From an uncultured bacterium (GTDB lineage: Bacteria > Patescibacteriota > Minisyncoccia > UBA6257 > GWB1-50-10), in assembly GCA_963768835.1 (NCBI GenBank), contig CAVYJB010000001.1, forward strand, positions 152,420-216,419: a DNA stretch of 64,000 nucleotides, written 5' to 3'. Position 1 is the first letter of the stretch, and each line of letters starts with the position of its first letter. A program made the translations under genes and the position numbers. The notes under the pieces are model-generated. The model had not been told where the DNA came from, did no database searches, and saw only the letters and a program-made list of their open reading frames with translations. This document shows positions 30,413 to 49,012 of this stretch, piece by piece.

Positions 30413-31169
30413 GGTCTTGTGGTTTTACCGCTCCGACCTTGGCCGCTCCATACGCACCTTTTCGGAGCCACCACCATACTCGCACGACATCCCAGAGTGT
30501 GGAAGCGTACGCTTTCGCACCCACCGTGGAGCGAGTATCGTTCACCCACCGCACCGGTATTTCCTTGATGCGGAATCCGAGATGGAGCGCCAGCGCCAGA
30601 ACTTCAACATCAAAACCCCACTGATCGACCCTCGCGAGAGGAAAAATCTGCTCTGCCGAGGCCTCGGAGAAGCACTTGAACCCGCATTGTGAGTCCCGCA
30701 CGCCAGGAAGAACCAACGGCTGGATAATAAGGCGATTTCCTAGCTTCCCTAGTATCTGCCGATACCATGGCTGAGCGGGAACGAGTTCCGCTCCTCGCAC
30801 CCCTCGCGAACCGAACACAACCTCATAGCCTTCCTTGAAATACGGGAGCATGTGCTCGAACTGATCAATGGAGGTGGAATTGTCCGCGTCAGTGAAGAGC
30901 CGCCAGTTGCCCTTCGCTTCGAGCATCCCGCGCCGCACGACCCATCCCTTCCCGTGATTCGCGGGTTCATCGACGAGCCGGAGATTCCGCACGGTCTGGG
31001 CAAATCGGCGGACAACCTCCGCAGTCGCATCCTTCGAACCATCGTTCACCACAAGGATCTCGTAGGAATACTCCGCGTGGGAGAGCCGCCGGTCGATGTC
31101 CACAAGAGTGCCGGGCAGCCGCTCGGATTCGTTGTAGGCGGGGATGATGACGGAGAGAAATGGTTTCAT
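30396..31169 (-). CDS. Family-2 glycosyltransferase (polyprenol-phosphate sugar synthase, DPM1/GtrB-like)
   Basis: LSVIIPAYNE...ILVVNDGSKD...; DxD. Confidence 0.85.
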   Translation of the reverse strand: MKPFLSVIIPAYNESERLPGTLVDIDRRLSHAEYSYEILVVNDGSKDATAEVVRRFAQTVRNLRLVDEPANHGKGWVVRRGMLEAKGNWRLFTDADNSTSIDQFEHMLPYFKEGYEVVFGSRGVRGAELVPAQPWYRQILGKLGNRLIIQPLVLPGVRDSQCGFKCFSEASAEQIFPLARVDQWGFDVEVLALALHLGFRIKEIPVRWVNDTRSTVGAKAYASTLWDVVRVWWWLRKGAYGAAKVGAVKPQDHVETF

Positions 31170-31227: not shown

Positions 31228-31845
31228 TTACGCCGACGTTACGCGGGGCTTGAATACCACAAGCTTGTAACTCAAGAAGTTCCAGAGGAACGAGGCGAGG
31301 ACGCCTCCGAGACCACCGACATTCGCCCAGAGATTCGCCGAAACCCCGGCGGGCGCTCCCATCACGTTCACGATGAGCGAGGCCGCCCCGGCGTTCAGGA
31401 GCGCTCCCCCTAATGTGAAAAGTGCGAAACGGAGATACTCCGTCCCCGTCACGGAAAGCGTGCTCTGAAAAGTCCAGAACTTGTTCCAGAAGTAACTATT
31501 CGTCGTCGCCACAAGAAACGCGACGATTGCAAAAGCGCTGTACCACCATCCTTTAGCAATACCCGTCGTCAAGATAAAGAGGTTCAGGACTGCAAAATTC
31601 AGAAGCGTATTCAGGGTGCCCACTGCGGCGAACTTTCCGAACTGCTCGAATACCTTCCATCGCCGGCTCAGGAGCTTCAGCACCCAGAGCGCGCAGGGCG
31701 CGAGGATGGAGAAGCCAATGACCGACAAGGCGCCGGTCTTAACGGTCACAGGGAGAAGTTTCGTGGTGGTAAGCGGCAGAAGCACGAGCCACCCGACCAG
31801 GAATCCGATCACTGTCACCAGATAGAAATCCTTTTTTGTGTTCAT
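31228..31845 (-). CDS. GtrA-family membrane protein (putative polyprenol-linked sugar flippase)
   Basis: FGKFAAVGTLNTLLNFAVLNL...NSYFWNKFWTF GtrA signature; 4-6 TM helices. Confidence 0.7.
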   Translation of the reverse strand: MNTKKDFYLVTVIGFLVGWLVLLPLTTTKLLPVTVKTGALSVIGFSILAPCALWVLKLLSRRWKVFEQFGKFAAVGTLNTLLNFAVLNLFILTTGIAKGWWYSAFAIVAFLVATTNSYFWNKFWTFQSTLSVTGTEYLRFALFTLGGALLNAGAASLIVNVMGAPAGVSANLWANVGGLGGVLASFLWNFLSYKLVVFKPRVTSA

Positions 31846-31855
31846 TGTAGTTTTA

Positions 31856-34222
31856 TTAGAATTCCCTCAACCTTCGCCGTATTTCCTCTTCGACCTCCCG
31901 GCGGTCGCGGCCATACGCCCGGCGGGACCGTTCCCGGACCTCCTCCGCGCGCCCCGGATCCCCACGGATGGCGAATACATCGGTCGAGATGCGTATATTG
32001 AACGGCTTCACGGTCTGCCCCCGCACAAGAAGTCGCACGTAGGCATTCAGGTTGTCGATGTTCTGGAGGTCAGCGGCTCCGACGGTGGGCTCGAACTGCT
32101 TAGCCAGGAACTCCGCATCCTGTGGCCCGACCCGAAGTACCACCTCGCTCCCCACGTTCCCAAAAACCGCATCCCGAATCTTCTCCGGCAGCTGGGCGAT
32201 GAACTGGTGAGCCACCGTAAGATCGAGCCGATACTTACGCGCCTCAGATAGGATGGTCCCGATGGAATCTGTCGCAAAATTCTGGAACTCATCGATATAG
32301 AGATACCAGTCGCGACGTTCCGCCTCGCTCGGGGTATCGCCCCGGGAAAGCGCGGCAAAGAGCACCTTGGAAAGGATAATCATCCCGAGGAGGGCCATAT
32401 TGGCGTCTCCGATCTTCCCTTTCCGAAGATTCACCACGAGAATTTTCCCGCCATCCAAGATCGCCCGGAAATCCATGGCGGATTTTGTTTGCCCGATGAT
32501 CGGACGAACGTAGTCATTCGCAATAAAATTATTGAACTTCGAGGTGACATATGGTGTGAGGTTTGCGAGAGATGCTTCTCCTCCCGCTTTCGCGGCTTCT
32601 TTCTCCCAGAAGTCCTGGACGATGGGATTCCGAATACGCGCGAGTTTTTTCGCCCGCCAGGCGGTGTCTGTGAAAACACGCGGGAGCTCGACTAGGGTTG
32701 CGGGCTCTGTGGAAGCATCCTCCATCAAGAGGAGGAGTGCTTGTCGGAGATACTGCTCGAACATCGGACCCCCCGTCTGCCGGAGATCGTAGAGCTTTTC
32801 AAGGATCGCGAGCATGTCGTTCACGATGAAAGTTTTCTCTTCCGGACGGTCGAGCCGGTACTCGAGCATGTTGAGGCCCACCGGATGTTCAAGGTCGCCG
32901 GGATCAAAGACGATGACGTCCTCCGCGCGTTCCGCCGGAACGTTCGCGAGCACAAACTCCGCGAACTCCCCGTGCGGGTCGATAACACCGACGCCTTTCC
33001 CGCTCTTCATGTCCTCGAGGATGAGGCTCTTGAGAAGCGTTGTCTTGCCGGTCCCCGTCTGCCCCAACACATAGAGGTGCCGGCGGCGATCCTCGTCGGT
33101 CAGATAGATACGCCGACGTCCACCCCGGAAAAGACTCTCTCCCAGAAAGGTCCCTTCGGTGGGGGCATCGGCAGGAGGCGGCGCCTCGCGAGCCTTCAGG
33201 GCCTTGATGCGCGGGGTCTCCGTGAACGCCGTCGGAAGATGGAAAAGGCTCGCGAGCTCCTCACTCGAAAGTACCATTGCATCCGCGCGGTCGAACGAGC
33301 GGAAAATGAAGTCCCGAGTCACGGCCGCAGGGTTCCGAGGTATGATGATCTTCAAACCGTTGCGGTCGGGTGCCCCGAACTGGGAAAACCCCGCCGTGAT
33401 GCCCCCGAGGAGAGATTCTGCCTCCACCGGATTCGGAGCCGAGGTGAGAATACGAATATTCACCTCAAAGAGAGGTTTCCCAACCTTCGCTCCTATGGCC
33501 TCGACGACCGCGGCGTCCACTTCCTTCCGCTCCTGTTTCTTCTCTTTGCTCGCGGGATTGAGCGCTTCCTTCACGTCCCCGATCGTGAGTGGCACGGCGC
33601 TTCCGCCGAGGATGCTCTTCAAACCGGCGCCTTTTTTTAGGACCTCAAGCGTCGAGCGTACCTCGCGCGCCGCGCGCGCTGGAGCGGGACGGGCGACCAC
33701 CTGGAGCGCTGCGCCCTCCCCGAGCTCCTTCACATTCGAAAAACCCCCGAGGGTGGGTGCGAAAGTGTCGGCCCCAATCTCCCGGTAGCTCCGGAGCGGA
33801 AGCACGAAACGTTCCTTTTCTTTCACCCACGCCGCGGCGACAGACCCCCGATAGTTGAAAATATTGTAGTCCTCCACCGCGTGCACGTCCGCATCGTTCC
33901 AAAGGGATTGGACTTGGCGCGCGACAGCTTCCGTAAGGCGGTGGGGCACGGCGAGATAGAAGTGGATCTCCTCACCCACGTAGGGAACGGCCACCTCGAA
34001 AACAAAAGGCTCTCGGAACGACGCGAGAGCGGAGAAAAGCTGCTCCGAGAGGGCGATTTCCTTTACCACATCCTTTCCCTCGATGCTTTGGACCGGCAGC
34101 CGTATAAGAAGAAGCTGCATCTGGAGCTCCGTCATGAGCCGTCGGTGCGCAAGACGGCGCGAAAGGTAAAACGCGCCGATTCCAGCGGCGGCGATGACGA
34201 GAGCGAAGAACAAGACAACCAT
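31856..34222 (-). CDS. TraD/VirD4 (type IV coupling protein)-like membrane ATPase of the FtsK/HerA superfamily
   Basis: N-terminal TM helix; Walker A YVLGQTGTGKTT; Walker B LYIDEFQNF. Downstream HQFIAQLPEKIRDAVFGNVGSEVVLRVGPQDAEFLA matches the TraG-D_C/T4CP Q-S..QL...YG...I..N..T..FR..D..TA motif. Confidence 0.65.
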   Translation of the reverse strand: MVVLFFALVIAAAGIGAFYLSRRLAHRRLMTELQMQLLLIRLPVQSIEGKDVVKEIALSEQLFSALASFREPFVFEVAVPYVGEEIHFYLAVPHRLTEAVARQVQSLWNDADVHAVEDYNIFNYRGSVAAAWVKEKERFVLPLRSYREIGADTFAPTLGGFSNVKELGEGAALQVVARPAPARAAREVRSTLEVLKKGAGLKSILGGSAVPLTIGDVKEALNPASKEKKQERKEVDAAVVEAIGAKVGKPLFEVNIRILTSAPNPVEAESLLGGITAGFSQFGAPDRNGLKIIIPRNPAAVTRDFIFRSFDRADAMVLSSEELASLFHLPTAFTETPRIKALKAREAPPPADAPTEGTFLGESLFRGGRRRIYLTDEDRRRHLYVLGQTGTGKTTLLKSLILEDMKSGKGVGVIDPHGEFAEFVLANVPAERAEDVIVFDPGDLEHPVGLNMLEYRLDRPEEKTFIVNDMLAILEKLYDLRQTGGPMFEQYLRQALLLLMEDASTEPATLVELPRVFTDTAWRAKKLARIRNPIVQDFWEKEAAKAGGEASLANLTPYVTSKFNNFIANDYVRPIIGQTKSAMDFRAILDGGKILVVNLRKGKIGDANMALLGMIILSKVLFAALSRGDTPSEAERRDWYLYIDEFQNFATDSIGTILSEARKYRLDLTVAHQFIAQLPEKIRDAVFGNVGSEVVLRVGPQDAEFLAKQFEPTVGAADLQNIDNLNAYVRLLVRGQTVKPFNIRISTDVFAIRGDPGRAEEVRERSRRAYGRDRREVEEEIRRRLREF

Positions 34223-34680: not shown

Positions 34681-36240
34681 ATGGCGTGGAACTGGAAAAT
34701 TGTTCTTGGAGTCATCGTTATTCTCCTTCTCGCCACATTCCTGCGCCTCTACCAACTCCCTTCGCTTCCGCCCGGACTTTACCCCGACGAGGCGATGAAC
34801 GGTTCCAATGACCTTGAGGCACTGCGCACGCACGACTTCAAGGTTTTTTATCCGGAGAACAACGGGCGTGAGGGACTTTTCATCAACATCCAGGCGTTTT
34901 TCCTGAAGCCTTTCCTGGACCATGGGATTCCTCTGGAGCCCTGGATGCTCCGGTTCCCAAGCGCCATTTTTGGCATCCTCACGGTTCTCGGAATCTTCTG
35001 CCTCACCCGCGAGCTCTATGGAATGAGCGGTGTTCCGCCGGGTGCCCGCGCAAACCGCATCGCGCTCCTCGCCGCGTTCCTCCTCGCGACTCTTTTTTGG
35101 CATATCAACTTTTCCCGCATCGGTTTCCGCGCCATCACGGCGCCGTTCTGGCTCACATGGGGTTTCTACCTGACGCTTTACACATTCCGAGCTTTGCGAG
35201 TCCCCCGTCCGCGTTTGCGGTGGCTCCTCCCCGTTCTTTCGGCCGTAGTTTACACCGCCGGCTTCTACTCCTATATCGCGTTCCGCGCAACGCCACTGCT
35301 TTTTGCAGTACCTGCATTCTGGCTTCTCACGCACGGCTACCCGAAGCGGCGATTCTGGGCTATCACAGGACTTTTTGTTGTCACCGCAACCGTCGTGATG
35401 ATCCCCTTCCTCGCCTACTTCACGGCCCATCCGGCGGACTTCTTCGGGCGCACATCACAAATCTCCATCTTCACCTCTCCGCACCCTGCGCTTGACCTCC
35501 TCCAGAACATCGCGCTCACCGTCGGTATGTTCAATATCTACGGGGACGGCAATTGGCGCCACAACATTGCGGGCAGCCCGGAGCTCTATGGGCCCATCGG
35601 AATCTTCTTCCTTATCGGAGTTGCCCTCGGAGTCGCCGCGCTCCTTCGGTTCCTGCGCCGTCGGAAAACCCACATGGAAGCCGCAGCGGCGGATTCCGAC
35701 GTGTTCCCTTTCCTTCTGGCCTTTGGATGGCTCGTGGTCGCGGCGTTGCCCGTTGTAATTTCGAATGAAGGGTTGCCGCACGCACTTCGCTCTATCCTCC
35801 TCATTCCCCCCGCGATCCTCCTCGCGGCCTTAGGCGGCATACGTCTTTTCGAGTTCCTTAAAAACGAGTTTCACGACCACCCTGGACTCCAGCGCATGCT
35901 TCAGGGAGGCGTCGTTCTCGTTCTCGCCGCGACGGCTCTTCTCGCATACCAGCGGTATTTTATCGTCTGGGGGCAGAACCCCAACGTGCCGGGCGCCTTT
36001 AATCAGGACTATGTCGACATCGCCTACATGCTCCGCGCCCTTCCCCCGGACCTTCCGAAGTACGTCGTGGTGCAGGCGGGAGGTGTGGATGTACGCGGCA
36101 TTCCAATGCCCGCCGAAACGGTCATGTTTCTCACGCAAACATTCTTCCCAGAGGATCGGGACGCAAGAAATATCCACTACGTGCTGCCAGACCAGATAAG
36201 CTCCATCCCGCCCGGCAGTTTCACGGTGACGCTTCGTTAG
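34681..36240 (+). CDS. GT39/GT83-family membrane glycosyltransferase (PMT/ArnT-like; protein O-mannosyltransferase-like)
   Basis: N-terminal LRLYQL...GLYPDEA typical of PMT_2/ArnT; more than 10 TM helices. Confidence 0.8.
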   Translation: MAWNWKIVLGVIVILLLATFLRLYQLPSLPPGLYPDEAMNGSNDLEALRTHDFKVFYPENNGREGLFINIQAFFLKPFLDHGIPLEPWMLRFPSAIFGILTVLGIFCLTRELYGMSGVPPGARANRIALLAAFLLATLFWHINFSRIGFRAITAPFWLTWGFYLTLYTFRALRVPRPRLRWLLPVLSAVVYTAGFYSYIAFRATPLLFAVPAFWLLTHGYPKRRFWAITGLFVVTATVVMIPFLAYFTAHPADFFGRTSQISIFTSPHPALDLLQNIALTVGMFNIYGDGNWRHNIAGSPELYGPIGIFFLIGVALGVAALLRFLRRRKTHMEAAAADSDVFPFLLAFGWLVVAALPVVISNEGLPHALRSILLIPPAILLAALGGIRLFEFLKNEFHDHPGLQRMLQGGVVLVLAATALLAYQRYFIVWGQNPNVPGAFNQDYVDIAYMLRALPPDLPKYVVVQAGGVDVRGIPMPAETVMFLTQTFFPEDRDARNIHYVLPDQISSIPPGSFTVTLR

Positions 36241-36249
36241 GAGGTACCG

Positions 36250-37548
36250 TCAGAATCCCTGGATCTTGATTGAACCTGGGACGCTGGAATAGTCGATGTT
36301 CGTCGAGGTCACGAACTGGTTCGTGGGTTGCGTGACGGGGATTCCGGACGTGGAACCTCCAGTCCAGTCCGCCTGCCAGAACGCCGCGTTCCGCCACCGC
36401 GTGAGATAGTCCACAATCTGAAGCTGCCCCTGCGTGGCGCCCACAGGCCATTGTACCGAGACGGTGACTTGCTCTGTGGACGGATCGAGAGAGGTGCCAC
36501 CCCCGCACGGCGCCGTCCCCGCGATTGAGGAAGAAGAATCGTTCGTCCGGCATACGTCCTGGATAAAGAAATAGCGTTTCAAGATGTTGCTCTTATAGAG
36601 CCGTGAAACCTCATCGGATGTGAGAGCTCGGTTGTACCATCGCACCTCGTCGAGATAATCGTTCGCAGGCGCGGTCCCTGCAGGGCCGCCGTTCAGAGTC
36701 ATGATGGCACCCACCGGCACCACATAGGTCCCGGAACCTCCGCCCGAGGATTGCCCGTCTATATAGAGAGCTGCCGTGTTCGAGGCGAAGGTCGCGACGA
36801 CATGATAGAAACGCGCGGTGGTAAGGAGACCAGCCGACACCGCGAGGAGACTGCCGCCGGACTGGGTGGTCCAGAGCACCACGGCTCCGTTACTGCGGAT
36901 ACCGAGACGAAAACCTGACGTGCCGCCGGGATCACGAGCAACAAGAATGTTATTCCCCTCCCCGCCAGCCTTGATGGCGATGGGACGGGTCCAGAAAGAC
37001 ACGGAAAAAGCAGAAGTATCATAGAGCGTGCTCGCTCCTGCGGTAACGGCTGCGGTAACACCGTCAAACTGAAGACAGTTTGCAACCGCGCACGTTGTCG
37101 AGCTTCGGACAGGGCTCCCGACAAATGTCCCCGTGTTCGCGTTCCCCGAAGCATCGTAGGTCGCGGTTGAGGTGACCGCGGGGTCTTCGTCGAATTTCCA
37201 ATACCCAACGAGACCATATGTGGTACCTCCATCCATCATCCCCTCCTCGCCGCGGACCGGCAGATAGGTGGAGGTCGCGAGACCAAAGAAGTAGTGGGCG
37301 TTGGGGGAGCGGACGAGACCGTAGATATTCACCCAGTTCCCGTTCCCATAGGAACGAAGCTTGTCCATAAGATCCTGTGCCGCGGCGGACGCGAACTGGT
37401 TTTTCTGGATTGTCAGCGAGGCGCGGAGAATGCCCGCAATAGCGATTGCGGCGGCCGTGATAAGAACGCCCCCGATAGCGAGTGCGATAAGCACCTCGAT
37501 CAGCGACTGACCGGACCGAGCCGTCCGATAAATTGGTGAGCGTTCCAT
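36250..37548 (-). CDS. Type IV (pseudo)pilin with a laminin-G/ConA-like lectin domain
   Basis: Prepilin leader ...ARSGQSLIEVLIALAIGGVLITAAA. LamG-like region FDGVTAAV...FSVSFWTRP...ALYIDGQ...DEVRWYNRALTSDEVSRLY. Confidence 0.75.
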   Translation of the reverse strand: MERSPIYRTARSGQSLIEVLIALAIGGVLITAAAIAIAGILRASLTIQKNQFASAAAQDLMDKLRSYGNGNWVNIYGLVRSPNAHYFFGLATSTYLPVRGEEGMMDGGTTYGLVGYWKFDEDPAVTSTATYDASGNANTGTFVGSPVRSSTTCAVANCLQFDGVTAAVTAGASTLYDTSAFSVSFWTRPIAIKAGGEGNNILVARDPGGTSGFRLGIRSNGAVVLWTTQSGGSLLAVSAGLLTTARFYHVVATFASNTAALYIDGQSSGGGSGTYVVPVGAIMTLNGGPAGTAPANDYLDEVRWYNRALTSDEVSRLYKSNILKRYFFIQDVCRTNDSSSSIAGTAPCGGGTSLDPSTEQVTVSVQWPVGATQGQLQIVDYLTRWRNAAFWQADWTGGSTSGIPVTQPTNQFVTSTNIDYSSVPGSIKIQGF

Positions 37549-37553
37549 CGGTT

Positions 37554-40500
37554 CTAGGGCTTAATCTCAACCCCGACCATCGCCCAGGAATTCGCGCTCC
37601 CCAAGGTGTAGTTCGAGATCACGGCACCCGGGTTGGAGGTGAGCCCGTTCTCGGCTTCGCCCGCACCCGTAACATTCGTGGCCGCCGCGCCACCAGAGGT
37701 CACCATCGCGGAACCCTCCAGCGTCTGTCCCGCTCCCGCCGCAACAGTCGGGAGAGACTGGACTGCGAGGCCGCTTACCACAAGAGCATTACTCACGGTC
37801 GTTGTGAGGGTAAGGGAGGGAGCGGCACCGGAACCCGTAGCCGCCGTAACGGCCCCGATGGCACCGGAACCGTTCGAGCCACCCGTGTTCGTCGTGTTAT
37901 AGGCAGCGACAAGGATCGTGGCCTTCGCGGAGGCAGAAAGCGTCGCGGTAACAGCGCCCGAGAACGTCGTGGAAGCAAAAGCGCGCCACACCTCCACGCG
38001 GGCGCTCGTCCCGTTCGTGGAACTCGCGACGAAAACCCAGGTGAGGCCGCCGCCGGAAATCGAGTTCACGGTCTGGCTAGTAGAGTTCTGAAGAGCGACG
38101 GTCGCGAGGAGGAGCCGGTTCGCACCGCTAGTCGTGAGGGAAGCGGAAGTCACAGTCGTCGAACCCGTGGGAGGCGTCACGAAATCCGAATCCAAGGACT
38201 GTTGGGAACCGAACGTCACGTGATTCGCCGCGGTCGAACGGTTCGGGGAGACCGGACATCCGCCGCTAGAACAGAGATGGTCTCCCAGAAGATCGATCGC
38301 GGTTCCCGCAGAGCCGGTTGAAGGATTCATCGAGAGGAGCCGTGGCAATACCTGGAAACCGGCTCCCCAAACATAAGCCTTAGAATCGCCCGAACGCGTA
38401 AGCGTGATGGTGCCACTATATGTAGAAGTCGGAAGGTTCGCAGGAACCTCAACGCACGCAGTGCTCGACTGGACCGTAGTGGAAGCCCAACCGGCCACCG
38501 CACAAGAGCCGCCTGCAGTCGGATGGATGGTCGACGCCACGGTGCCAAAGGCACCCGTGAACTGGACAGTGCCGGTGGCAGACCCGAAATGATCTCCAGA
38601 AAGGTAGATCAGGCCGTCGGTATCCACGGCGTTGTACTCGCGAGCCGCAAATGGCTGGAGCGAAACGAGGTTCGTGATGTTCGGATAAGCGTAGAAAGTC
38701 CACGGGTTAGGATCGGACTGGGAAGCCGCTGTTACCTGGAGAGTGTTCACGCCTCCGAGGGTCGCGAGAGTCGTCGACACCGTGAAGCTGATGGAGGTGT
38801 TAGTCCACGCAGTGATATCAGGGTACCCCACGGTCGCCGCGCCTCCAATGAGAAAGCGGATACAGCCGGTGCCGGTGCCGCCCGCGCAGTTCGCGCGCGA
38901 GGCACCCGCAGCGACAGTACCAAACCCATATCCCGTGAGAGTAGCAGTCTGGTTCGATGCCCCCCCGTCAGGGGCCGTAGGATATGTCGTCGTCGCGACA
39001 TCGGGAAGAACAGTGAGCACCCCCGAAAGAGACGTGGGTGCGCCGGACTTCACGGAAGAGCCGGATACCGTCACATCTGCGTTCGCGGCAACTTGAAAAT
39101 CAACCGTCTGACCTCCAACAGGATACGTGGGGGTAGAGGATTTCAGGTCAGTTTTCACATAGAAGTAGTAAGTGTTTCCGAAAGCGACCGCGAGAGACCC
39201 CACCACAGTCGCAGTCTGCCCCGTAAAGGAAGCGACGGTCGAGCCGTACTGTGTCGTTGCACCGTTCGCGTTTCCAGTCGTGTTGTACCAGAGGGAAAGA
39301 TTCCCAAGATCAGCGCCCGAGACGGTGCCGTTCTCAGTCACCTTGATTGAGGTCACGGTATCCGAAGAGGAAGATATAGAGAGAGTGAAAGCAGGACAGG
39401 TGGAGGAAGCCGCACACGAAGTCGGCGCTAAGGCGACTACGGAGAGGCCCGAGGTCGAGGTCGTGACAAGGGATCCAGTGGTCACACCGATAGTGAGGGT
39501 CGCGGCCGCTGCTGCCGGCGTGTACGGTCCTGCTCCGACACCAGCGTTGTAGTTTATGTAGGTGTCGCGAGGAAAGATCTTGTAGTAGTAGGAGGTGCCG
39601 TTTGAGAGCCCGGTATCGGTGAAGGTGGTAGCGGCTCCGGCATAGACGACGGTTGAGGTACCGATGGTATTCCCCGCCACGTAGGTCTGGCCATCCACAG
39701 GGAAGTTCGAGACCAGTGCCGTGTTCCGAAGGATGACCTCTGAGTTGAAATCGCCGTCGCCGGGGTTCGTCCAGTTCAGGACTACCTGCGTATTCCCTGC
39801 AGTGTTGCTGCCCCAGGTGGCGTTGCCGGGGGCCTGGCGATCTACCGTCGTAGTTGTACCCGCGGTGTCCCACCAAGACTGGCCGTTCGTCGATGTGTAG
39901 CTGCTCACGTATGCGCTCACAGGATACGTGCCGGCGGTGAGAGCGGCATAGCTCTTCGCGGTCATGATGATGCGATACGTCGTGGTCGCGGTCCCGACCG
40001 GAATGGGAGTGCCGCCGCTGAAAGACCAGGTGTTGCCGGCGGGGACCGTTGTGGTCGCGAAGTACTGCTGGGTCATCGCATTGTTCACAATGGAGACGGA
40101 GGCGAGGGCTGGCGTACCAGTCGTCGTGACGGTGAGATTAGTGATCGAATCGGTGCCCGCACTCGTGTTGAACTGGAATTGGTCGGCGTAGACATTGGTC
40201 GAGGAGGGGGCGATGGTCGAGTTGGCGGGATCGGAACCGGTCGTGAGGAAGGTAAGAGCCGCCGGCGCGGGCGTGTACGGTCCTGCTCCGACACCAGCGT
40301 TGTAGTTTATGTAGGTGTCGCGAGGAAAGATCTTGTAGTAGTAGGAGGTGCCGTTTGAGAGCCCGGTATCGGTGAAGGTGGTAGCGGCTCCGGCATAGAC
40401 GACGGTTGAGGTACCGATGGTATTCCCCGCCACGTAGGTCTGGCCATCCACAGGGAAGTTCGAGACCAGTGCCGTGTTCCGAAGGATGACCTCTGAGTTG

Positions 40501-41768
40501 AAATCGCCGTCGCCGGGGTTCGTCCAGTTCAGGACTACCTGCGTATTCCCTGCAGTGTTGCTGCCCCAGGTGGCGTTGCCGGGGGCCTGGCGATCGATGG
40601 TGGTCGCGGGTGCGTCAGTATCAGACCCCGACTTCGCGTTTGTAGACGTCACGGCACTCACATACGCAGTCACAGGATACGTGCCGGCGGTGAGAGCGGC
40701 ATAGCTCTTCGCGGTCATGATGATGCGATACGTCGTGGTCGCGGTCCCGACCGGAATGGGAGTGCCGCCCGAGAAACTCCAAGTGTTGCCGGAGGGAACA
40801 GAGGATGTCGTAAAATACTGGGTCGTCATCGCGTCGTTCATGACGGAAAGGGATGCGATGGCAGACGTGTTCGCAGTCGTGACAGTGAGACCCGTCACAG
40901 AATCAGTCCCGGCGGAGTCGGAAAGCTGGAACTGGTCCTTGAAAACGTTGGTCGAGGAGGGAGCAACGGTTGAGGCGGAGGGGTCGGCGCCGGTGGAGAG
41001 GAAAGTGGTGGGAGCCCCACCGGCAGCCTTGAACGTGACCATGGTCATCTCATAATCGTCAGTCGCACTAGGTTGACTTGCGGTTGCGCTATAGCATCCA
41101 GTTGAACTCACTATCTTATCTTCGTCGACATTGTTATTAAAATAGCCGGCTTCCTCGGTGAAGCCGGTACCGGCCGTGGGCGTCTCGATCGCGTCAGTCA
41201 TAAAACCGATGATGGCTTCATTCGCAACGGTCGTCGTCTTACAAGGCGTTGCAATAGTGGTACCAGTCCCCGTGGTCGTCGCAATTTGGTCAAAGGGTGA
41301 ACTAGTATCGGCCCCGGAATATTCATTGAGGTAAATCTCGACATACGCGTTCGGTTGAGCGGAGAAATTTATGGTAATCGTATCGGTTCCGCCGGGGACA
41401 TTCTTCGCATAAAAAACCTGTTGGTCCCAATTCTCGGTATAGTTCGATGCATATCCGACCAGCGCGGGTCCGGTGGACGTGAATACATCTCCGAGTGTGT
41501 CAGTGATTGAGCTGACGGTAGGCCCATCCCAACCCCAGTCAACCTTAAGCACGACAAGGTCCCCGGCGGTCTGCGTGACGTTCGCCGTACTAACATTTGC
41601 CGTCCATGAACTTGGGGCGTTCGTGGTTACACGCTTGAACGCAATGGCAGCTTCTGCGCGCGGCACGGAAAATGCCAGCATTCCAGCGCTGCACGCAACG
41701 GCAGCGATAATGACTAGCAATGCGGCGTGCAGTCGTTTTTCTTCTATACGAACACTACGGGATGTCAT
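37554..41768 (-). CDS. Giant Ser/Thr-rich surface protein (1404 aa) with tandem FN3-like ~250-aa repeats and C-terminal IPT/Ig-like domains
   Basis: N-terminal signal anchor; repeated ...TNPGDGDFNSEVILRNT...TDTGLSNGTSYYYKIFPRD... blocks; extremely S/T/G/A-rich. Confidence 0.75.
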   Translation of the reverse strand: MTSRSVRIEEKRLHAALLVIIAAVACSAGMLAFSVPRAEAAIAFKRVTTNAPSSWTANVSTANVTQTAGDLVVLKVDWGWDGPTVSSITDTLGDVFTSTGPALVGYASNYTENWDQQVFYAKNVPGGTDTITINFSAQPNAYVEIYLNEYSGADTSSPFDQIATTTGTGTTIATPCKTTTVANEAIIGFMTDAIETPTAGTGFTEEAGYFNNNVDEDKIVSSTGCYSATASQPSATDDYEMTMVTFKAAGGAPTTFLSTGADPSASTVAPSSTNVFKDQFQLSDSAGTDSVTGLTVTTANTSAIASLSVMNDAMTTQYFTTSSVPSGNTWSFSGGTPIPVGTATTTYRIIMTAKSYAALTAGTYPVTAYVSAVTSTNAKSGSDTDAPATTIDRQAPGNATWGSNTAGNTQVVLNWTNPGDGDFNSEVILRNTALVSNFPVDGQTYVAGNTIGTSTVVYAGAATTFTDTGLSNGTSYYYKIFPRDTYINYNAGVGAGPYTPAPAALTFLTTGSDPANSTIAPSSTNVYADQFQFNTSAGTDSITNLTVTTTGTPALASVSIVNNAMTQQYFATTTVPAGNTWSFSGGTPIPVGTATTTYRIIMTAKSYAALTAGTYPVSAYVSSYTSTNGQSWWDTAGTTTTVDRQAPGNATWGSNTAGNTQVVLNWTNPGDGDFNSEVILRNTALVSNFPVDGQTYVAGNTIGTSTVVYAGAATTFTDTGLSNGTSYYYKIFPRDTYINYNAGVGAGPYTPAAAAATLTIGVTTGSLVTTSTSGLSVVALAPTSCAASSTCPAFTLSISSSSDTVTSIKVTENGTVSGADLGNLSLWYNTTGNANGATTQYGSTVASFTGQTATVVGSLAVAFGNTYYFYVKTDLKSSTPTYPVGGQTVDFQVAANADVTVSGSSVKSGAPTSLSGVLTVLPDVATTTYPTAPDGGASNQTATLTGYGFGTVAAGASRANCAGGTGTGCIRFLIGGAATVGYPDITAWTNTSISFTVSTTLATLGGVNTLQVTAASQSDPNPWTFYAYPNITNLVSLQPFAAREYNAVDTDGLIYLSGDHFGSATGTVQFTGAFGTVASTIHPTAGGSCAVAGWASTTVQSSTACVEVPANLPTSTYSGTITLTRSGDSKAYVWGAGFQVLPRLLSMNPSTGSAGTAIDLLGDHLCSSGGCPVSPNRSTAANHVTFGSQQSLDSDFVTPPTGSTTVTSASLTTSGANRLLLATVALQNSTSQTVNSISGGGLTWVFVASSTNGTSARVEVWRAFASTTFSGAVTATLSASAKATILVAAYNTTNTGGSNGSGAIGAVTAATGSGAAPSLTLTTTVSNALVVSGLAVQSLPTVAAGAGQTLEGSAMVTSGGAAATNVTGAGEAENGLTSNPGAVISNYTLGSANSWAMVGVEIKP
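39517..40770. repeat. Perfect tandem direct duplication inside the giant surface-protein gene (period ~752 bp)
   Basis: 39517-39845 is identical to 40269-40597, and 39925-40020 to 40672-40770. The two blocks are separated by ~80 bp of divergent sequence. Confidence 0.8.
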
Positions 41769-41781
41769 GATAATGCGAGAA

Positions 41782-42147
41782 TTAGTGTTTAGGACTCGTG
41801 GAGGTCGCGGGGGTGTTCGGTATGACCTTGGAGACGGCCCAACCCTTGCTGGTCTTCACGGCCCAGTACATCTGCCCGTCCGCGCCCTTAATCTGCTGCA
41901 TGTCTGTGGTGGTCGCGTTCTGATATCCGGGGATGTTCTTCACGTCCTGCACGGCCTGCTGCTCGGTTCGAACGATGGGTGCAGGGATCGGGGACGGGGC
42001 GGGGACAGGCGCAGGGACGGGGATGGGCGGCTGCTGATGGGTAGCTCCGCGGATAAGGAACCCAAGGACAACCACGAGGATAATAACAGCAACCCCGATG
42101 ATTATTTTTCGAGGAGGAAATGGGAGGTTGGGAATATTGTTATCCAT
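41782..42147 (-). CDS. Hypothetical small membrane protein with a Pro-rich linker
   Basis: 121-aa ORF; TM helix IIIGVAVIILVVVLGFLI; PVPAPVPAPSPIPAP. Confidence 0.4.
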   Translation of the reverse strand: MDNNIPNLPFPPRKIIIGVAVIILVVVLGFLIRGATHQQPPIPVPAPVPAPSPIPAPIVRTEQQAVQDVKNIPGYQNATTTDMQQIKGADGQMYWAVKTSKGWAVSKVIPNTPATSTSPKH

Positions 42148-42201: not shown

Positions 42202-43500
42202 TTAGGGAACTGTGAAGGTGAGCAGGTTCGATGCGTTGCTGTTCGAGGTAAGCGTCGTGGAAGCGACACCGCTCGTCGAGCCGGCAGGCACCTTCACACA
42301 TACCTCCGTGTCCGTCCACGCGGTCGCATTCCCGCAGGTACCGTAACCCACCATATTGGAACCTGTCCCTGCGGTCTCGAATACAGGACCCGTCGCTGCC
42401 CGAACGGTGAATCCGCTTGGCAACACGCCGCTCTGGCCGTCCGGGTTTACCACGGTCACGTCCCATGCTCCCGCAGGAGCTCCGGAAAGATTCAAACTGC
42501 CGCCTGTGAGACTCGTTGAGTTCGCGAAGACAAAACCGCTCCCCACGATGGCCTGCGCACCCCGTGAGATCTTCACGATGAATGCACCCGCCTGGAATGA
42601 GGAGCCACTGATTGCCACGCTCGTCAGATTGGAGCCGCTGACTCCGCTCGAAGCATTGATAGAGTTCACGAGAGGAGGAGGGAGCATCACGCTGAATCCG
42701 TTCGCAAGGGTAGCGCTCGCGTTTCCCGCAAACACAACGACACTCCAGCCGCCCGAGGTAGCGTTTGTAATATCGAAGGATCCACCCGTGATAGTCGCTG
42801 GTCCCGTCACGCTGAACCCCACAAGCGAGATAGGGGCCTGGCCTGACCGCACAAGCTGTACCGTCGAACTGGTGATAAACCCCGTACCGCTCACCGTGCC
42901 AATCGCCACAGGAGCATTATTCGAACCCCACGAGGGGGTGATTCCTGTCACGCTAAGCCCGACCGCGTTCGAAACCGTGAGGACTCCGTTCGCCCCGACA
43001 GCGATAAAACGCTGCTGAGAAAGATTCGCCTGCGAAGCGAGGAGGATGGAGAAATATCCGGAAGGAAGGCCCGTCTCGGGCGCGAAGATAAGATCCTTTG
43101 ATGTACCTGACGCGGGGTCCACAAACTGGATGCCGCGCCGGAGCGAGTAGGTGCGCTCAGGAGTCCCGGACGCAAAGCTCGGCCCGCTGAAAACGGTGTA
43201 CTGCGAGGTCCCCGTCGCGTTCAAGAAGTGGATGCCCCAACCATGCCCGTTCTCCTGGGTGATAGAGCGCTTCTGGGTACTCTGCACCACCGCCGAGAGC
43301 TCGTTGATCGATAGCTGAAGATTCTGGCTCGTGCCGTAACCGTTTAGGCTGAGCACGGAAATCGTACCGAGAACGGCGAGGATGCCAATCGAAATCACAA
43401 GCTCCAGAATTGTGAACCCTTCTGTCGAACGGGGCTTTCCTCCGCGCTCTGAGGGAGAAGCAAGCCCGAGGCTGGAAGGTGGCGGCAGGGTAGCTCGCAT
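42202..43500 (-). CDS. Type IV pilin-like (pseudopilin) protein with Ig/IPT-like repeats
   Basis: Prepilin leader ...KPRSTEGFTILELVISIGILAVLGT. Confidence 0.7.
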   Translation of the reverse strand: MRATLPPPSSLGLASPSERGGKPRSTEGFTILELVISIGILAVLGTISVLSLNGYGTSQNLQLSINELSAVVQSTQKRSITQENGHGWGIHFLNATGTSQYTVFSGPSFASGTPERTYSLRRGIQFVDPASGTSKDLIFAPETGLPSGYFSILLASQANLSQQRFIAVGANGVLTVSNAVGLSVTGITPSWGSNNAPVAIGTVSGTGFITSSTVQLVRSGQAPISLVGFSVTGPATITGGSFDITNATSGGWSVVVFAGNASATLANGFSVMLPPPLVNSINASSGVSGSNLTSVAISGSSFQAGAFIVKISRGAQAIVGSGFVFANSTSLTGGSLNLSGAPAGAWDVTVVNPDGQSGVLPSGFTVRAATGPVFETAGTGSNMVGYGTCGNATAWTDTEVCVKVPAGSTSGVASTTLTSNSNASNLLTFTVP

Positions 43501-43514
43501 AATGATTTGAAGAA

Positions 43515-44714
43515 TTAGAACTGGGTAGTGAGCTGGTAGATGGGAATGATAATAGAAAGAGCGATAGTGCCGATGATGACGCCGATAAAGAGCAGGAGCG
43601 CGGGCTCTAGAAATGAAACGAGCGTCTTGATGGAACTGTCGATCTCCTTCACATAGAAATCCGAGAGGGTTTCTAATACTTCCTCGATATGCCCCGCCTT
43701 TTCCGAAATGGCGATCAGGGTTGTCACGGTTTGGGGAAAGTAGGATTCGCGACGGAACGCATCCCCGATCGTAAGGCCTTTCTGAAGCCCTTCTCGCGAG
43801 ATGTGCATCAGGCTCTCGGCAACCTCGGGGTTACCGGCTGCCTGCGCAGTAATCTCCAGGGCATCGGTGATGGGCATACCTGCCTTGATGAGGGAAGCGA
43901 GGGTCCGAGAGAATCGTTGCAGAGCGATCTTCTTCACGACATCCTTGATCACCGGTATCCCGCCCAGAAGATTTGTGAGGAACTTCTTAAACACCAGGGA
44001 GGAACGGTAGAGATAGAAAGAACCGAAGATGAGCACGAAAGCAGCCACAAGTATGACGATACCGTTGTCGCGAAAGAAGAAGCCGATAGCGAATACGGCG
44101 CGCGAAAAAGCCGGCGGCTGGAATCCACTGTCCGAAAAGACACCCGCGATTTTTGGTAGCGCGAACGTCACAATGCCCGCCAAGATAAGCACAGACCCCA
44201 CGAGGAGCAGGATAGGGTAGATGAGAGCACTCTTGAGCTGATCCTGTAGATCCTTCTGCTTCGTGAGAGATTCCGTAAGATCTCCGAACACGCGCTCGAG
44301 GTTTCCTGAAGCTTCCCCGGCGCGAATGAGGTTGATCGTCACATGGCTGAACACCTTGGGGTAGCGTGCGAAGGTGAGGTAGAAAGGTCTGCCGCGTTCA
44401 AGGTTCGAGCGCACCTCGGTCAGAATGTCGCGCACGGCGGTCTTCGTGAAATCCGAGATGAGAATATTGATAGCTTCGAGGAGGCCGGTGCCGATCTTCA
44501 GCATCAGGGCCAGATACTTTGTGATGAAAATCTGGTCCGTCAGCGTCACGCGCCCCCGAAAAAACTTCAGGGCGCCTCCTTCTACGGCGCGCACGCCGAC
44601 GGGCTTCAGGTTCTTCGACGCAAGAAACGTCAGTACCTCCGCGACATTTGCAGCGTCCATCTCGCTTTCGACCACCCGGCCGTCAACTTGGGATGCAATG
44701 TAGTGGAATTTCAT
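43515..44714 (-). CDS. pilC: Type IV pilus assembly platform protein PilC (GspF family)
   Basis: Two GspF repeats; three TM segments. Confidence 0.9.
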   Translation of the reverse strand: MKFHYIASQVDGRVVESEMDAANVAEVLTFLASKNLKPVGVRAVEGGALKFFRGRVTLTDQIFITKYLALMLKIGTGLLEAINILISDFTKTAVRDILTEVRSNLERGRPFYLTFARYPKVFSHVTINLIRAGEASGNLERVFGDLTESLTKQKDLQDQLKSALIYPILLLVGSVLILAGIVTFALPKIAGVFSDSGFQPPAFSRAVFAIGFFFRDNGIVILVAAFVLIFGSFYLYRSSLVFKKFLTNLLGGIPVIKDVVKKIALQRFSRTLASLIKAGMPITDALEITAQAAGNPEVAESLMHISREGLQKGLTIGDAFRRESYFPQTVTTLIAISEKAGHIEEVLETLSDFYVKEIDSSIKTLVSFLEPALLLFIGVIIGTIALSIIIPIYQLTTQF

Positions 44715-46504: not shown

Positions 46505-47056
46505 CTAGAGACTCTGGAGATCGCTCCCAACCTCGAACCAATCTGGTAGTGTTCCACCTTCCGTCCATTCCTTCGATTGATACTTCAGGCTTTCCATCCG
46601 CGTAAAGAATTTATATCTTCCTGGCGTCGTGGATGCTGAGAACGCATAGAAGCAGCCAGGGACGGTCCCGCTGCATCCTTGGTTCGCGCTCGAGGTCGTG
46701 TTCAGAGGATCGATGGGGAGACGGGAGAGCGGCGAACCAGCGGAGATGAGGGAAAGGTTCAGGGGCACCCAGCCTGTCCCGTTCGTCGCCGTCGATGTCG
46801 AGGTTCGACAGCTGCCGCCAGTCGGCGCAGTCGTGCCGGCGGTGCAAGTTGTGGTTGCGATCCAGCCCGCGGCAGCAGTATCCGTCACGTAGAGGGAAAG
46901 GGTTTTGTTCAGAGTTTCAAGATCTGAAAATCGCGTCCCGTCTCGACTCTCTCGAAGGAGTTCGGTTGGATTCAAAATCAAGACGACTACAGCGGAAAGC
47001 ACCGCGAGCACCGCGATGACGATGAGAAGTTCAATGAGAGTAAATCCTTTTTCCAT
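46505..47056 (-). CDS. Type IV pilin (paralog 1)
   Basis: MEKGFTLIELLIVIAVLAVLSAVVVLILNP.. prepilin N-terminus; C-terminus ...WFEVGSDLQSL. Confidence 0.85.
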   Translation of the reverse strand: MEKGFTLIELLIVIAVLAVLSAVVVLILNPTELLRESRDGTRFSDLETLNKTLSLYVTDTAAAGWIATTTCTAGTTAPTGGSCRTSTSTATNGTGWVPLNLSLISAGSPLSRLPIDPLNTTSSANQGCSGTVPGCFYAFSASTTPGRYKFFTRMESLKYQSKEWTEGGTLPDWFEVGSDLQSL

Positions 47057-47100
47057 AAAGCAAAATGATGAGCAGCGAGCGGATCGATGATGAATGTTCT

Positions 47101-47679
47101 TTACATGCTCTGGAGATCCGTGCCGACCTCATACCAATCCGGGACATTGCCGGCGTCCTGACTCTCTTTAATAGAATACTTGATGCTCTCCATGCTGGCA
47201 TAAAGCTTGTATCTCCCCGGAGTTGAAGAGGCCCTGAAAGCATAGAAGCAGCCATGTACGGTCCCGCTGCATCCCTGGACTTGGGATGACGTGGTGTTTA
47301 GGGGATCGATGGGTATGCGCGCGAACGGAGCGCCCGCGGCGATGGCCTTGAAGTTCACCGGGACCCACCCCGTGCCATCCACCGCGGTTGAGGTCACCTG
47401 GGCGCACGACCCGCCTCCTGGCATGGACGTGCCGGCCGTGCACATGGTCGTTGATGCCCCTGTAGGCCAGTTCGCCGCACCCGTGTCCACTACATAGAGA
47501 TTCAGGGCATTCGAAATAATGCTGAGATCCGAAAGTCGGTCCGCATCGCGTGTCTGTCGTAAGCGTTCTGCGGGGTCGATAAGAATCACGAGAGCCGCAG
47601 AAAGAACAGCCAGTAATCCAATCACGATGAGAAGCTCAAGTAACGTAAACCCCGAAGAAGCCGGGGAAGGATGATTCAT
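47101..47679 (-). CDS. Type IV pilin (paralog 2). The likely start is the internal Met (MNHPSPASSGFTLLELL...).
   Basis: GFTLLELLIVIGLLAVLSAALVILIDP; C-terminus WYEVGTDLQSM. Confidence 0.8.
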   Translation of the reverse strand: MNHPSPASSGFTLLELLIVIGLLAVLSAALVILIDPAERLRQTRDADRLSDLSIISNALNLYVVDTGAANWPTGASTTMCTAGTSMPGGGSCAQVTSTAVDGTGWVPVNFKAIAAGAPFARIPIDPLNTTSSQVQGCSGTVHGCFYAFRASSTPGRYKLYASMESIKYSIKESQDAGNVPDWYEVGTDLQSM

Positions 47680-47741
47680 TTCTGGCTTTATTATAGTGCT
47701 GATAACGATAATAGAAAGCTCATTGGTGCATAAATGCCGCT

Positions 47742-48308
47742 CTAGAGGCTGAGCGCGCTCCCTAATTCGTACCAATCAGGAAGTGTACCACCGTCAATGG
47801 ATTCCACATCTCCTGAACCCCCTTGGCTGAACTTTACGCTCTCCATGTTTGCAACGAGCTTGTACTGGCCCACCGTGGAGGTGGAACGAAAACCATAGAA
47901 ACATCCCGGGAGAGATCCGCCACAATTTGTAGAACCGTTAGAGGGGTCCATCGGGAGCTTTGAGAGCGGCGAACCGCCGGAGATCTTCGTGAAATCCAGC
48001 GGCGCCCACCCGCTGCCGTCGACGGTTGCGGAAGCCACTGTCGTGCACGGGATGCTCCCTCCGCCCGCGGCAGGGAATAAGGTGCCGTAGGTGCAGTTAG
48101 TGGCAGCCACCCATCCGCCTTGCCCGCTCGCGTCGGTCACCCACACCGAGATCGCTCCGTTCAAAGCCGCCATGTCAGAGATGCGCGTTGCGTCCCGCGA
48201 TTGTTTCAGAAGTTCGGCGGGGTTCAGGACGAGGATGACCCCGGCGGCGAGCACCGCGAGAATCGCGATGACGATGAGAAGTTCTATCAGCGTGAACCCT
48301 TTCTCCAT
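47742..48308 (-). CDS. Type IV pilin (paralog 3)
   Basis: MEKGFTLIELLIVIAILAVLAAGVILVLNP; C-terminus WYELGSALSL. Confidence 0.85.
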   Translation of the reverse strand: MEKGFTLIELLIVIAILAVLAAGVILVLNPAELLKQSRDATRISDMAALNGAISVWVTDASGQGGWVAATNCTYGTLFPAAGGGSIPCTTVASATVDGSGWAPLDFTKISGGSPLSKLPMDPSNGSTNCGGSLPGCFYGFRSTSTVGQYKLVANMESVKFSQGGSGDVESIDGGTLPDWYELGSALSL

Positions 48309-48316
48309 TTATATAA

Positions 48317-48327
48317 TTATAGCACAG
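48317..48327 (-). promoter_or_regulatory. Extended -10 element TGTGCTATAAT for pilin paralog 3; predicts a near-leaderless transcript
   Basis: The -10 ends ~8 nt upstream of the ATG at 48308. Confidence 0.4.
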
Positions 48328-48403
48328 ATAGGACATGCCGGAGAAAATAAAAACCTCCCGCTGTGTCGGAAGGTTTTTGTGTTAAGAGGTTACAAGGTCG
48401 GGC

Positions 48404-49012
48404 CTAAGGCGTCATGTTGCTCCCAAGCTCGTACCAATCCGATACGACGCCGCCGTCCTTGTTGTTGGACTCGACATCCGCCGTACCGTTCTGGCTGTAC
48501 TTCACGCTCTCCATGTTTGCGACAAGCTTGTACTGACCCACCGTGGTACTGGACTTGAAACCGTAGTAACAGAAGTTCCCTGTCGTAACGCTCAGGCAGT
48601 TCGCGGAACCGTTGTTCGGGTCGATGGGAAGCTTCGAAAGCGGCGCACCGCCGGAGATAAGCCCGAGGTTAATCGGTATCCAACCGCTACCGCTGGTCAC
48701 CGTAGAACTACTGACTGCGCAGGCGACCGTCGTGCTGGCCGCCATCGGGAACACGCCGTTACCGGTGCCGGTGTTGTTCACTGCGTTCCAGGTGCACGTC
48801 GAGGTTGCGGAGGGCCAGCTCGATGACTGCCCCACGTCGGCGGTCCAGAGGGCGAGCGCGCTGTTCACGGCCGCGAGGTCTGAGATGCGCGTCGAGTCCC
48901 GGGACTGCTTCAAAAGCTCGGCGGGGTTCAGGACGAGCACCACTGCGGCAGAGAGGACCGCAAGAACCGCGATCACGATAAGGAGCTCAATGAGGGTAAA
49001 TCCTTTCTGCAT
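48404..49012 (-). CDS. Type IV pilin (paralog 4)
   Basis: MQKGFTLIELLIVIAVLAVLSAAVVLVLNP; C-terminus WYELGSNMTP. Confidence 0.85.
   Translation of the reverse strand: MQKGFTLIELLIVIAVLAVLSAAVVLVLNPAELLKQSRDSTRISDLAAVNSALALWTADVGQSSSWPSATSTCTWNAVNNTGTGNGVFPMAASTTVACAVSSSTVTSGSGWIPINLGLISGGAPLSKLPIDPNNGSANCLSVTTGNFCYYGFKSSTTVGQYKLVANMESVKYSQNGTADVESNNKDGGVVSDWYELGSNMTP

Follow-up and report, generated by a model that had tools for sequence, protein, structure and literature searches.

The window, that is, the whole stretch of 64,000 nucleotides (nt) of contig CAVYJB010000001.1 that was analysed, carries on its minus strand, at 37554-41768, an open reading frame (ORF) of 1404 amino acids (aa), here designated BIG. 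The account of this gene that is considered rather probable is that of an exported, all-beta protein of a pilus locus, with an adhesin-like function, in which parts of an old pair of modules have recently been made identical by gene conversion. The ORF is identical to the database protein P0001, which is encoded on a contig of 353 kb from NCBI/ENA, and its extent and length are confirmed as they had been given in an earlier note, made by inspection of the sequence.

Structure of the repeat in BIG

BIG contains a direct repeat of two copies, R1 and R2, in frame and with a period of 753 nt or 251 codons. Within the copies two tracts are identical at every position. The coordinates are:

40260..41012, minus strand: module copy R1, aa 253-503, composed of modA (aa 253-391) and an FN3 domain (aa 392-503)
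39507..40259, minus strand: module copy R2, aa 504-754, with 85% aa and 84% nt identity to R1
40270..40595, minus strand: perfect tract 1 in R1, aa 392-500
39517..39842, minus strand: perfect tract 1 in R2, aa 643-751, 326 nt, equal to 40270-40595
40670..40769, minus strand: perfect tract 2 in R1, aa 334-367
39917..40016, minus strand: perfect tract 2 in R2, aa 585-618 (the final modA strands), 100 nt, equal to 40670-40769

The repeat had been described in the earlier note as a perfect tandem duplication of about 752 bp. The period is 753, and the copies are mismatched at 120 of 753 positions (84% identity); with the identical tracts set aside, the identity is 63% over the remaining 327 positions. 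The two pairs of identical blocks named there do exist in the in-frame repeat, but their coordinates were a few bases off and the blocks of the second pair had been given unequal lengths. Tract 1 spans exactly one complete FN3 domain with linkers (strands at aa 650-749 in the AlphaFold2 model, model residues 8-107). It is separated from tract 2 by a patch of 74 nt with 56% identity between R1 and R2.

Both identical tracts far exceed chance expectation. When the mismatches were permuted in 100,000 trials, the longest identical run was on average 30 nt and at most 83, compared with the 326 observed. With tract 1 removed, 200,000 permutations over the remaining 427 positions gave a longest run with a mean of 16 and a maximum of 46, compared with 100 observed. 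Tandem Repeats Finder gave no report of the BIG repeat because the period of 753 is above its longest period, 500. Self-BLASTP of the whole protein gave the diagonal only, so the internal repeats were mapped by masked segment searches.

Age of the copies and origin of the identical tracts

For the non-identical parts of the two copies (aa 253-333 and 368-391 compared with aa 504-584 and 619-642) the Nei-Gojobori method gave a proportion of synonymous differences (pS) of 0.68, a synonymous distance (dS) of about 1.8 and a nonsynonymous distance (dN) of 0.30. Synonymous sites are saturated outside the identical tracts, whereas there are zero differences within them. The diverged parts show 67% and 54% aa identity between R1 and R2, and each of them is up to 63% and 58% identical to modules of unrelated proteins. 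Judged by these distances, R1 and R2 appear to be an old duplicate pair, or to have been put together from two modules. Saturated surroundings and difference-free tracts together argue for an old duplication with recent intragenic gene conversion, the perfect tracts being most probably recent overwrites and not a fresh duplication. Two segments, of 326 and 100 nt, would have been overwritten by homologous recombination between R1 and R2, and the conversion would have left a mosaic in which segments of 100% identity alternate with others of about 63%.

A recent tandem duplication of the 753-bp unit, not yet diverged, is favoured by the two long perfect tracts, both offset by 753 nt, but it does not account for the other 327 of the 753 positions with their low identity, high pS and saturated dS, nor for an R1-R2 distance outside the tracts that about equals the distance to modules of other organisms. 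The mosaic of perfect and saturated segments therefore excludes a recent duplication, provided that the diverged segments are not errors of assembly, and this highly improbable explanation was rejected. The earlier note had offered a very recent duplication or ongoing gene conversion, and of these the second is supported.

An artefact of assembly or polishing, in which multi-mapped reads homogenised the tracts or collapsed copies hide the true copy number, is improbable. The sequence is from a metagenome-assembled genome of the Candidate Phyla Radiation (CPR), an exact repeat of 326 nt is longer than short-read k-mers, and scans of genomes and metagenomes turned up no second, independent copy of it: the scan of genome contigs with the BIG protein found no relative, and the metagenome scan with it found only three distant relatives of the C-terminal domain, C-dom. 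Against an artefact, the assembler retained 120 differences between R1 and R2, including the 74-nt patch, and the copies were therefore resolved by it. The reading frame is also unbroken through both copies, and homologues that were assembled independently contain similar perfect tracts (of 272 nt in locus L086 and of 104 nt in L087).

The identity of the tracts might instead be held by constraint at the nucleotide level, through an RNA embedded in them, a regulatory element or a gene that overlaps them. Mechanical ORFs in other frames do overlap the repeat region, but an overlapping gene has neither a Pfam match nor conservation, and zero changes over 326 nt in both copies would be required. 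Since the tracts follow the boundaries of the protein domains (one whole FN3 domain and the end of modA) and the same pattern recurs at other positions in homologues, this explanation was rejected and is given next to no probability.

With gene conversion between old copies as the preferred explanation, the BIG repeat is a clean example, within a single sequence, of how gene conversion can be separated from recent duplication. It also marks a spot where short-read assembly and copy number need care.

The module in other proteins

The earlier note had spoken of an FN3-like module of about 250 aa. An FN3 domain does appear to be included, as judged from profile matches of homologues and a seven-strand model, but the 251-aa unit is not FN3 alone: it consists of a putative beta-sandwich of about 140 aa, modA, followed by FN3. 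When 1.84 billion entries were searched with a profile of the unit, 9292 cluster representatives were matched at E<=0.001; the number falls to 3236 at E<=1e-10 and to 917 at E<=1e-30, and many of the matches extend across all 250 positions. PDB sequences searched with a profile of the module yielded no significant match. In the homologues mapped from the first homology search there are 1-6 full-length tandem copies of the unit per protein. Named sources of homologues with the unit are Vicinamibacterales, Latescibacteria, Desulfuromonadales (multihaem cytochromes), Nitrospirae and Terriglobia.

Modules are up to 97% identical in aa within one protein, compared with about 50% between proteins. 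The P0014 gene (L086, 611-5743) has a perfect tract of 272 nt in a pair of modules with 92% identity that are two units apart, non-adjacent, at an offset of 1593 nt; past the tract, the mismatches fall mostly at every third base. This gene is an independent case of patchy conversion in the module family. The P0011 gene (L087) has a perfect tract of 104 nt. Patchy homogenisation is thus a recurrent yet non-universal trait of the family, the exception being the gene of P0002 that is considered together with the other counter-evidence below.

Domain organisation of BIG

BIG is predicted to be a Sec-exported, serine- and threonine-rich, all-beta protein of a 'beads-on-a-string' type, in the order signal peptide, N-dom, modA and FN3 twice, M, three IPT-like domains and C-dom. 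The parts outside the repeat are:

41649..41768, minus strand: signal peptide or anchor of Sec type, aa 1-40, read by eye
41013..41648, minus strand: N-dom, aa 41-252, an all-beta domain of 210 aa, of an unclassified family, probably resembling a carbohydrate-binding module
39009..39506, minus strand: M domain, aa 755-920, a beta-sandwich with an AlphaFold2 predicted local distance difference test score (pLDDT) of 77-94
38169..39008, minus strand: IPT-like cassette (IPTa, IPTb and IPTc), aa 921-1200, three Ig-like domains
37557..38168, minus strand: C-dom, aa 1201-1404, a homologue of N-dom

The first 40 aa, read by eye, have a basic n-region and about 20 hydrophobic residues and end in AEA↓A, in keeping with the signal anchor of the earlier note, and the homologues of BIG likewise have N-termini of A-x-A type. 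Serine and threonine make up 27.7% of the protein, in line with the FN3 repeats rich in these residues of that note. The IPT-like C-terminal domains named there hold for at least the last Ig-like domain, judged to be IPT/TIG by homology. At the extreme C-terminus C-dom was aligned by hhalign with N-dom with a probability of 97.8% and an E value of 8.8e-13 over 173 columns.

Membership of FN3 and IPT/TIG is supported via homology and modelling, not by direct profile matches. BIG itself has no Pfam match to fn3, only a weak FN3-like match to Pur_ac_phosph_N at E 0.021. The homologous modules of P0003, P0022 and P0011 reach 36.2, 33.4 and 28.0 bits with fn3 (PF00041, cut-off 25 bits), and the FN3 domain of the repeat was modelled by AlphaFold2 as a seven-strand sandwich. 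Nor does BIG itself have a Pfam match to TIG, and IPTa and IPTb are without Pfam support. At the position aligned with IPTc, however, P0124, P0022 and P0039 score 24.8, 51.4 and 49.6 bits with TIG (PF01833, cut-off 20.9 bits). The IPT-like cassette, modelled with medium to poor confidence by AlphaFold2, is kept in P0121-P0131 with 40-57% identity. Foldseek with the C-terminal model found only strings of Ig and FN3 domains (titin, cytokine receptors, complement macroglobulin domains).

M is conserved in P0122, P0125-P0128 and P0022. Its similarity to modA in BLAST is weak (E 0.2 within BIG and 1e-3 against modA of P0036), and when the module was compared with the C-terminal alignment by hhalign, the FN3 self-match was the only result; a relationship between modA and M therefore rests on the weak BLAST matches. 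Alignments A1, A3 and A4 were left out of structure prediction, MAFFT having placed rows of N-dom on modules, M on modA and FN3 on M.

N-dom was modelled with a pLDDT of 91 and a predicted template modelling score (pTM) of 0.90. It has no Pfam match, and a profile search of PDB sequences gave non-significant matches only. The best Foldseek matches, all weak, are jelly-roll capsid proteins of viruses and glycan-binding proteins. N-dom and C-dom belong to one family of domains of about 200 aa, of which TIG-rich proteins have 2-3 copies. In alignments A2 and A6 the residues D54, G57, Y84, E113, Y114, D124, G164 and A192 are invariant (numbered within the aligned segment that starts at protein aa 37). 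Two copies of N-dom relatives stand ahead of a GH5 cellulase in P0112; others follow domains resembling glyoxal/galactose oxidase in P0059 and P0040, and N-dom relatives also sit between TIG arrays. Such a distribution would be expected of a carbohydrate-binding module, and N-dom and C-dom are, judged by co-occurrence, a candidate new family of such modules.

No Pfam or NCBIfam model was matched by N-dom and C-dom, by modA or by M. Counting the 251-aa module as a unit, there are four domain types without a model in these databases, and the module is present in hundreds of clusters.

The pilus locus of the window

On the minus strand the order of genes is four small pilins, PilB, PilC, mp1, p121, BIG and mp2. 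BIG is embedded in a pilus locus, as the earlier note had stated; the locus is of type IV, and PilB, PilC and six prepilin-type genes flank BIG:

46505..49012, minus strand: four paralogous small prepilin genes in tandem, 183-224 aa
44720-46435, minus strand: PilB-like ATPase
43515-44714, minus strand: PilC-like platform protein
42202..43500, minus strand: mp1, a minor pseudopilin of 432 aa with a GspH/ComGD-like N-terminus
41782..42147, minus strand: p121, a small, bitopic, proline-rich membrane protein of 121 aa, 14 nt upstream of BIG
36250..37548, minus strand: mp2, a minor pseudopilin of 432 aa with a grafted LamG_3 domain, starting 6 nt past the stop codon of BIG

PilB of the window shares 65-68% identity with its counterparts in Candidatus Paceibacter, Jorgensenbacteria and further metagenome-assembled genomes of Patescibacteria. 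From this, a short RpoB and the content of genes, the host of BIG appears to be a Paceibacteria-like CPR bacterium. In the nearest relatives, L002 (Paceibacter) and L004 (Jorgensenbacteria), the order is PilB, PilC, mp1, mp2, a HerA-like ATPase and GalT, without BIG. A relative of BIG is encoded in 0 of 80 PilB-anchored loci. Because the nearest loci are without BIG, p121 and BIG look like a two-gene cassette inserted in this lineage.

The LamG_3 (concanavalin-like) domain of mp2 was matched with an E value of 9e-22, and mp1 and mp2 look like 'modular pilins' with grafted domains. In L002, L004 and L006 mp2 has 417-440 aa. The counterparts of mp2 in L084, L089 and L090 have 206-238 aa, and those of mp1 there 154-170 aa. 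The four small prepilins have near-identical N-termini, M-E/Q-KGFTLIELLIVIA, and one of them has a long N-terminal extension if a TTG start is used.

Downstream of the pilus operon, at 31856-34222 on the minus strand, is a HerA/FtsK/VirD4-like ATPase of 788 aa, which is 54-55% identical to proteins in the same position in L002 and L004 and possibly works with the pilus in the translocation of DNA. An ORF of 519 aa on the plus strand (34681-36240) has an N-terminal membrane helix and an 'LYPDEA' motif. It has no Pfam or NCBIfam match, and the idea of a GT-C glycosyltransferase is without profile support. The ORF adjoins genes for a GtrA-like flippase (31228-31845, minus strand) and a GT2 glycosyltransferase (30396-31169, minus strand), and the three could form a candidate surface glycosylation system beside the serine- and threonine-rich BIG and the pilins. 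With tblastn the 519-aa ORF was found in neither of the two syntenic loci, L002 and L004, in which GalT follows the HerA-like gene; GtrA and GT2 were not searched for there.

Relatives of BIG in other pilus loci

A second homology search, with aa 755-1404 of BIG as query, found relatives of 770-1132 aa that have M and/or the IPT cassette together with C-dom, their identity to BIG being 40-57%. Each has an N-terminus of Sec type, and the N-terminal parts differ (P0121 has a LamG head and P0123 one module). Among distant relatives the number of modules is 0, 1 or 2 in pilus-linked proteins and 1-6 in the others.

Several of these relatives are encoded at pilus genes. The gene of P0122 (L084/L085) stands in the order pilins, PilB, PilC, mp1, mp2, p178, BIG-like, followed by proteins of 406, 177 and 149 aa, with PilM/N nearby. 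The order around P0128 (L089) is PilB, PilC, mp1, mp2, BIG-like, proteins of 215 and 438 aa and a pilin. The gene of P0125 (L090) is downstream of PilB, PilC and minor pilins, that of P0123 (L082) is 5 kb from pilins, PilB and PilC, and that of P0129 (L088) is followed by a LamG pilin of 571 aa. The small genes of these loci are homologues of mp1, mp2 and p121 of the window. A homologue of p121 (L084, 9460-9996) is directly upstream of the BIG homologue, with 36% identity over 58 aa (E 6.5e-8), which suggests that p121 and BIG form a two-gene cassette. PilB of the window shares only 46-48% identity with PilB of L084, L089 and L090, and the pilus association therefore spans a wide distance.

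Near BIG homologues there are also bAvd-like genes (PF22296 / 23S_rRNA_IVP), at 3122-3469 in L090, directly between PilC and the minor pilins, and at 11062-11457 in L088. The bAvd-like family includes an accessory protein of diversity-generating retroelements.

These loci bear on the possibility that BIG is a stand-alone surface or secreted glycan-binding protein, serving as an envelope adhesin or in substrate capture, and merely co-located or co-regulated with pilus genes. A Sec-type N-terminus without pilin features would suit such a protein. All domains of BIG are mobile and occur in many surface proteins outside pilus systems (Acidobacteria, Latescibacteria, Desulfuromonadales and others), and the nearest homologue of the module, P0002, is itself encoded outside a pilus operon. 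Nevertheless, the same cassette is found amid minor-pilin genes in four loci (the window, L084/L085, L089 and L090) across the PilB distance given above, which is unlikely by chance, and a stand-alone role is regarded as somewhat unlikely.

Proposed function and evidence against it

On the account preferred here BIG is most likely a glycan-binding adhesin, possibly associated with the pilus. Sec would export the protein, as its N-terminus indicates. The twin terminal domains, N-dom and C-dom, would bind glycan, as the company kept by their relatives suggests, and the Ig and FN3 domains would serve as spacers. The conserved C-terminal cassette may be what docks BIG on the minor-pilin complex in the manner of PilY1 or PilX, the gene neighbourhood being what points to an association with the pilus. 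An identity of 326 nt is ample substrate for recombination of RecA type. Unequal crossing-over in this tract would lead to the loss or gain of exactly one 753-nt module, in frame, and the number of modules could in this way be changed by recombination.

CPR bacteria spend their lives attached to other cells, and the foremost candidates for recognising a host are their type IV pili. To our knowledge the adhesive parts of CPR pili are almost unknown beyond one strain of Saccharibacteria. BIG, as a recurrent, exported multi-domain protein amid minor-pilin genes, is a concrete candidate for this recognition.

Several observations weigh against parts of this account. As regards conversion, assembly or consensus polishing could partly create the exact identity of the tracts. 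The diverged 74-nt patch splits the tracts, and two conversion events or patchy repair are therefore required. In the gene of P0002 (L001), the closest full-module homologue, the longest identical tract is just 44 nt, and conversion is therefore not universal among these modules. As regards the pilus, P0002 is outside any pilus operon, and the upstream context of P0129 is cut off by a contig end. BIG lacks a pilin N-terminus, with no G↓FxxxE and no N_methyl match (PF07963, TIGR02532) in Pfam or NCBIfam, whereas the six neighbouring genes do match. The same databases gave no anchoring motif in BIG and no beta-propeller of the PilY1/PilC kind, the C-terminal half being a string of beta-sandwiches and a homologue of N-dom. 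As regards structure and glycan binding, a Foldseek search of N-dom against PDB gave nothing at E<0.01, and IPTc and C-dom were poorly modelled by AlphaFold2.

Comparison with known systems

Generic surface proteins with FN3, IPT/TIG and Ig-like domains share with BIG the fold types and the linkers rich in serine and threonine, and the module, N-dom and C-dom are common to hundreds of them. BIG differs from such proteins in those domains, listed above, that match no Pfam or NCBIfam model.

In the Periscope proteins, which are exported to the cell surface (SasG, Rib, Sgo_0707, CdrA; Whelan et al. 2021), tandem, very similar DNA repeats encode an elongated stalk of folded beta-domains by which a functional domain is held away from the cell, and the high DNA identity is proposed to permit intragenic recombination that alters the number of repeats (PMC8201768). 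The BIG repeat, with 251 aa and 85% aa identity, falls within the screening rule of that work, which is >50 residues and >=80% identity (PMC8201768). As for a stalk, FN3 and M were modelled as beta-sandwiches and their Foldseek matches are strings of Ig and FN3 domains. The differences are that BIG has only two copies with mosaic identity (100% and 63%) and no recognised cell-wall anchor, that its unit is a two-domain module, and that its gene is in a CPR pilus operon.

The PilY1/PilC proteins are adhesins associated with the tip of type IVa pili, and in Myxococcus and Pseudomonas PilY1 works together with the minor pilins (Treuner-Lange et al. 2020, PMC7541494). Like the PilY1/PilC proteins, BIG is a large non-pilin with a Sec-type signal, its gene lies between mp1 and mp2 with gaps of 14 and 6 nt, and among its relatives the N-terminal part is variable and the C-terminal part conserved. 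BIG is not a type IV pilin or pseudopilin, and because it has no propeller it is not a member of the PilY1/PilC family either. Its proposed association with the pilus is one of gene neighbourhood. A further difference from the hosts of PilY1 is that CPR bacteria are not known to have a typical outer membrane.

PilX1 and PilX2 of Nanosynbacter lyticus TM7x (Saccharibacteria) are the largest proteins of a CPR pilus locus and have no predicted PilD signal (PMC11623550). Their N-terminus is a pilin-like 'lollipop' onto which one domain has been grafted; the domains are lectin-like, of jelly-roll-like and propeller type, and the proteins are proposed to be adhesins for host glycans (PMC11623550). 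The structural neighbours of N-dom are, as reported for PilX1, just weak matches to capsid jelly rolls and glycan-binding proteins. In contrast, BIG has 1404 aa, no pilin part and about nine beta domains including a repeated module, the comparison being one of descriptions.

A more far-reaching proposal, regarded as doubtful, is that BIG is a distinct, pilus-borne adhesin of CPR bacteria that docks via the IPT domains and C-dom, perhaps with p121, and holds out the glycan-binding N-dom, with a reach that depends on the number of modules and can be varied by recombination. If true, the type IV pilus would carry a 'periscope', parallel to PilY1 in function but built of unrelated domains. Homogenised repeats, or concerted evolution, are an ordinary feature of bacterial surface proteins, and the setting found here is less ordinary: a family of uncharacterised proteins whose genes recur within the pilus operons of CPR-type loci.

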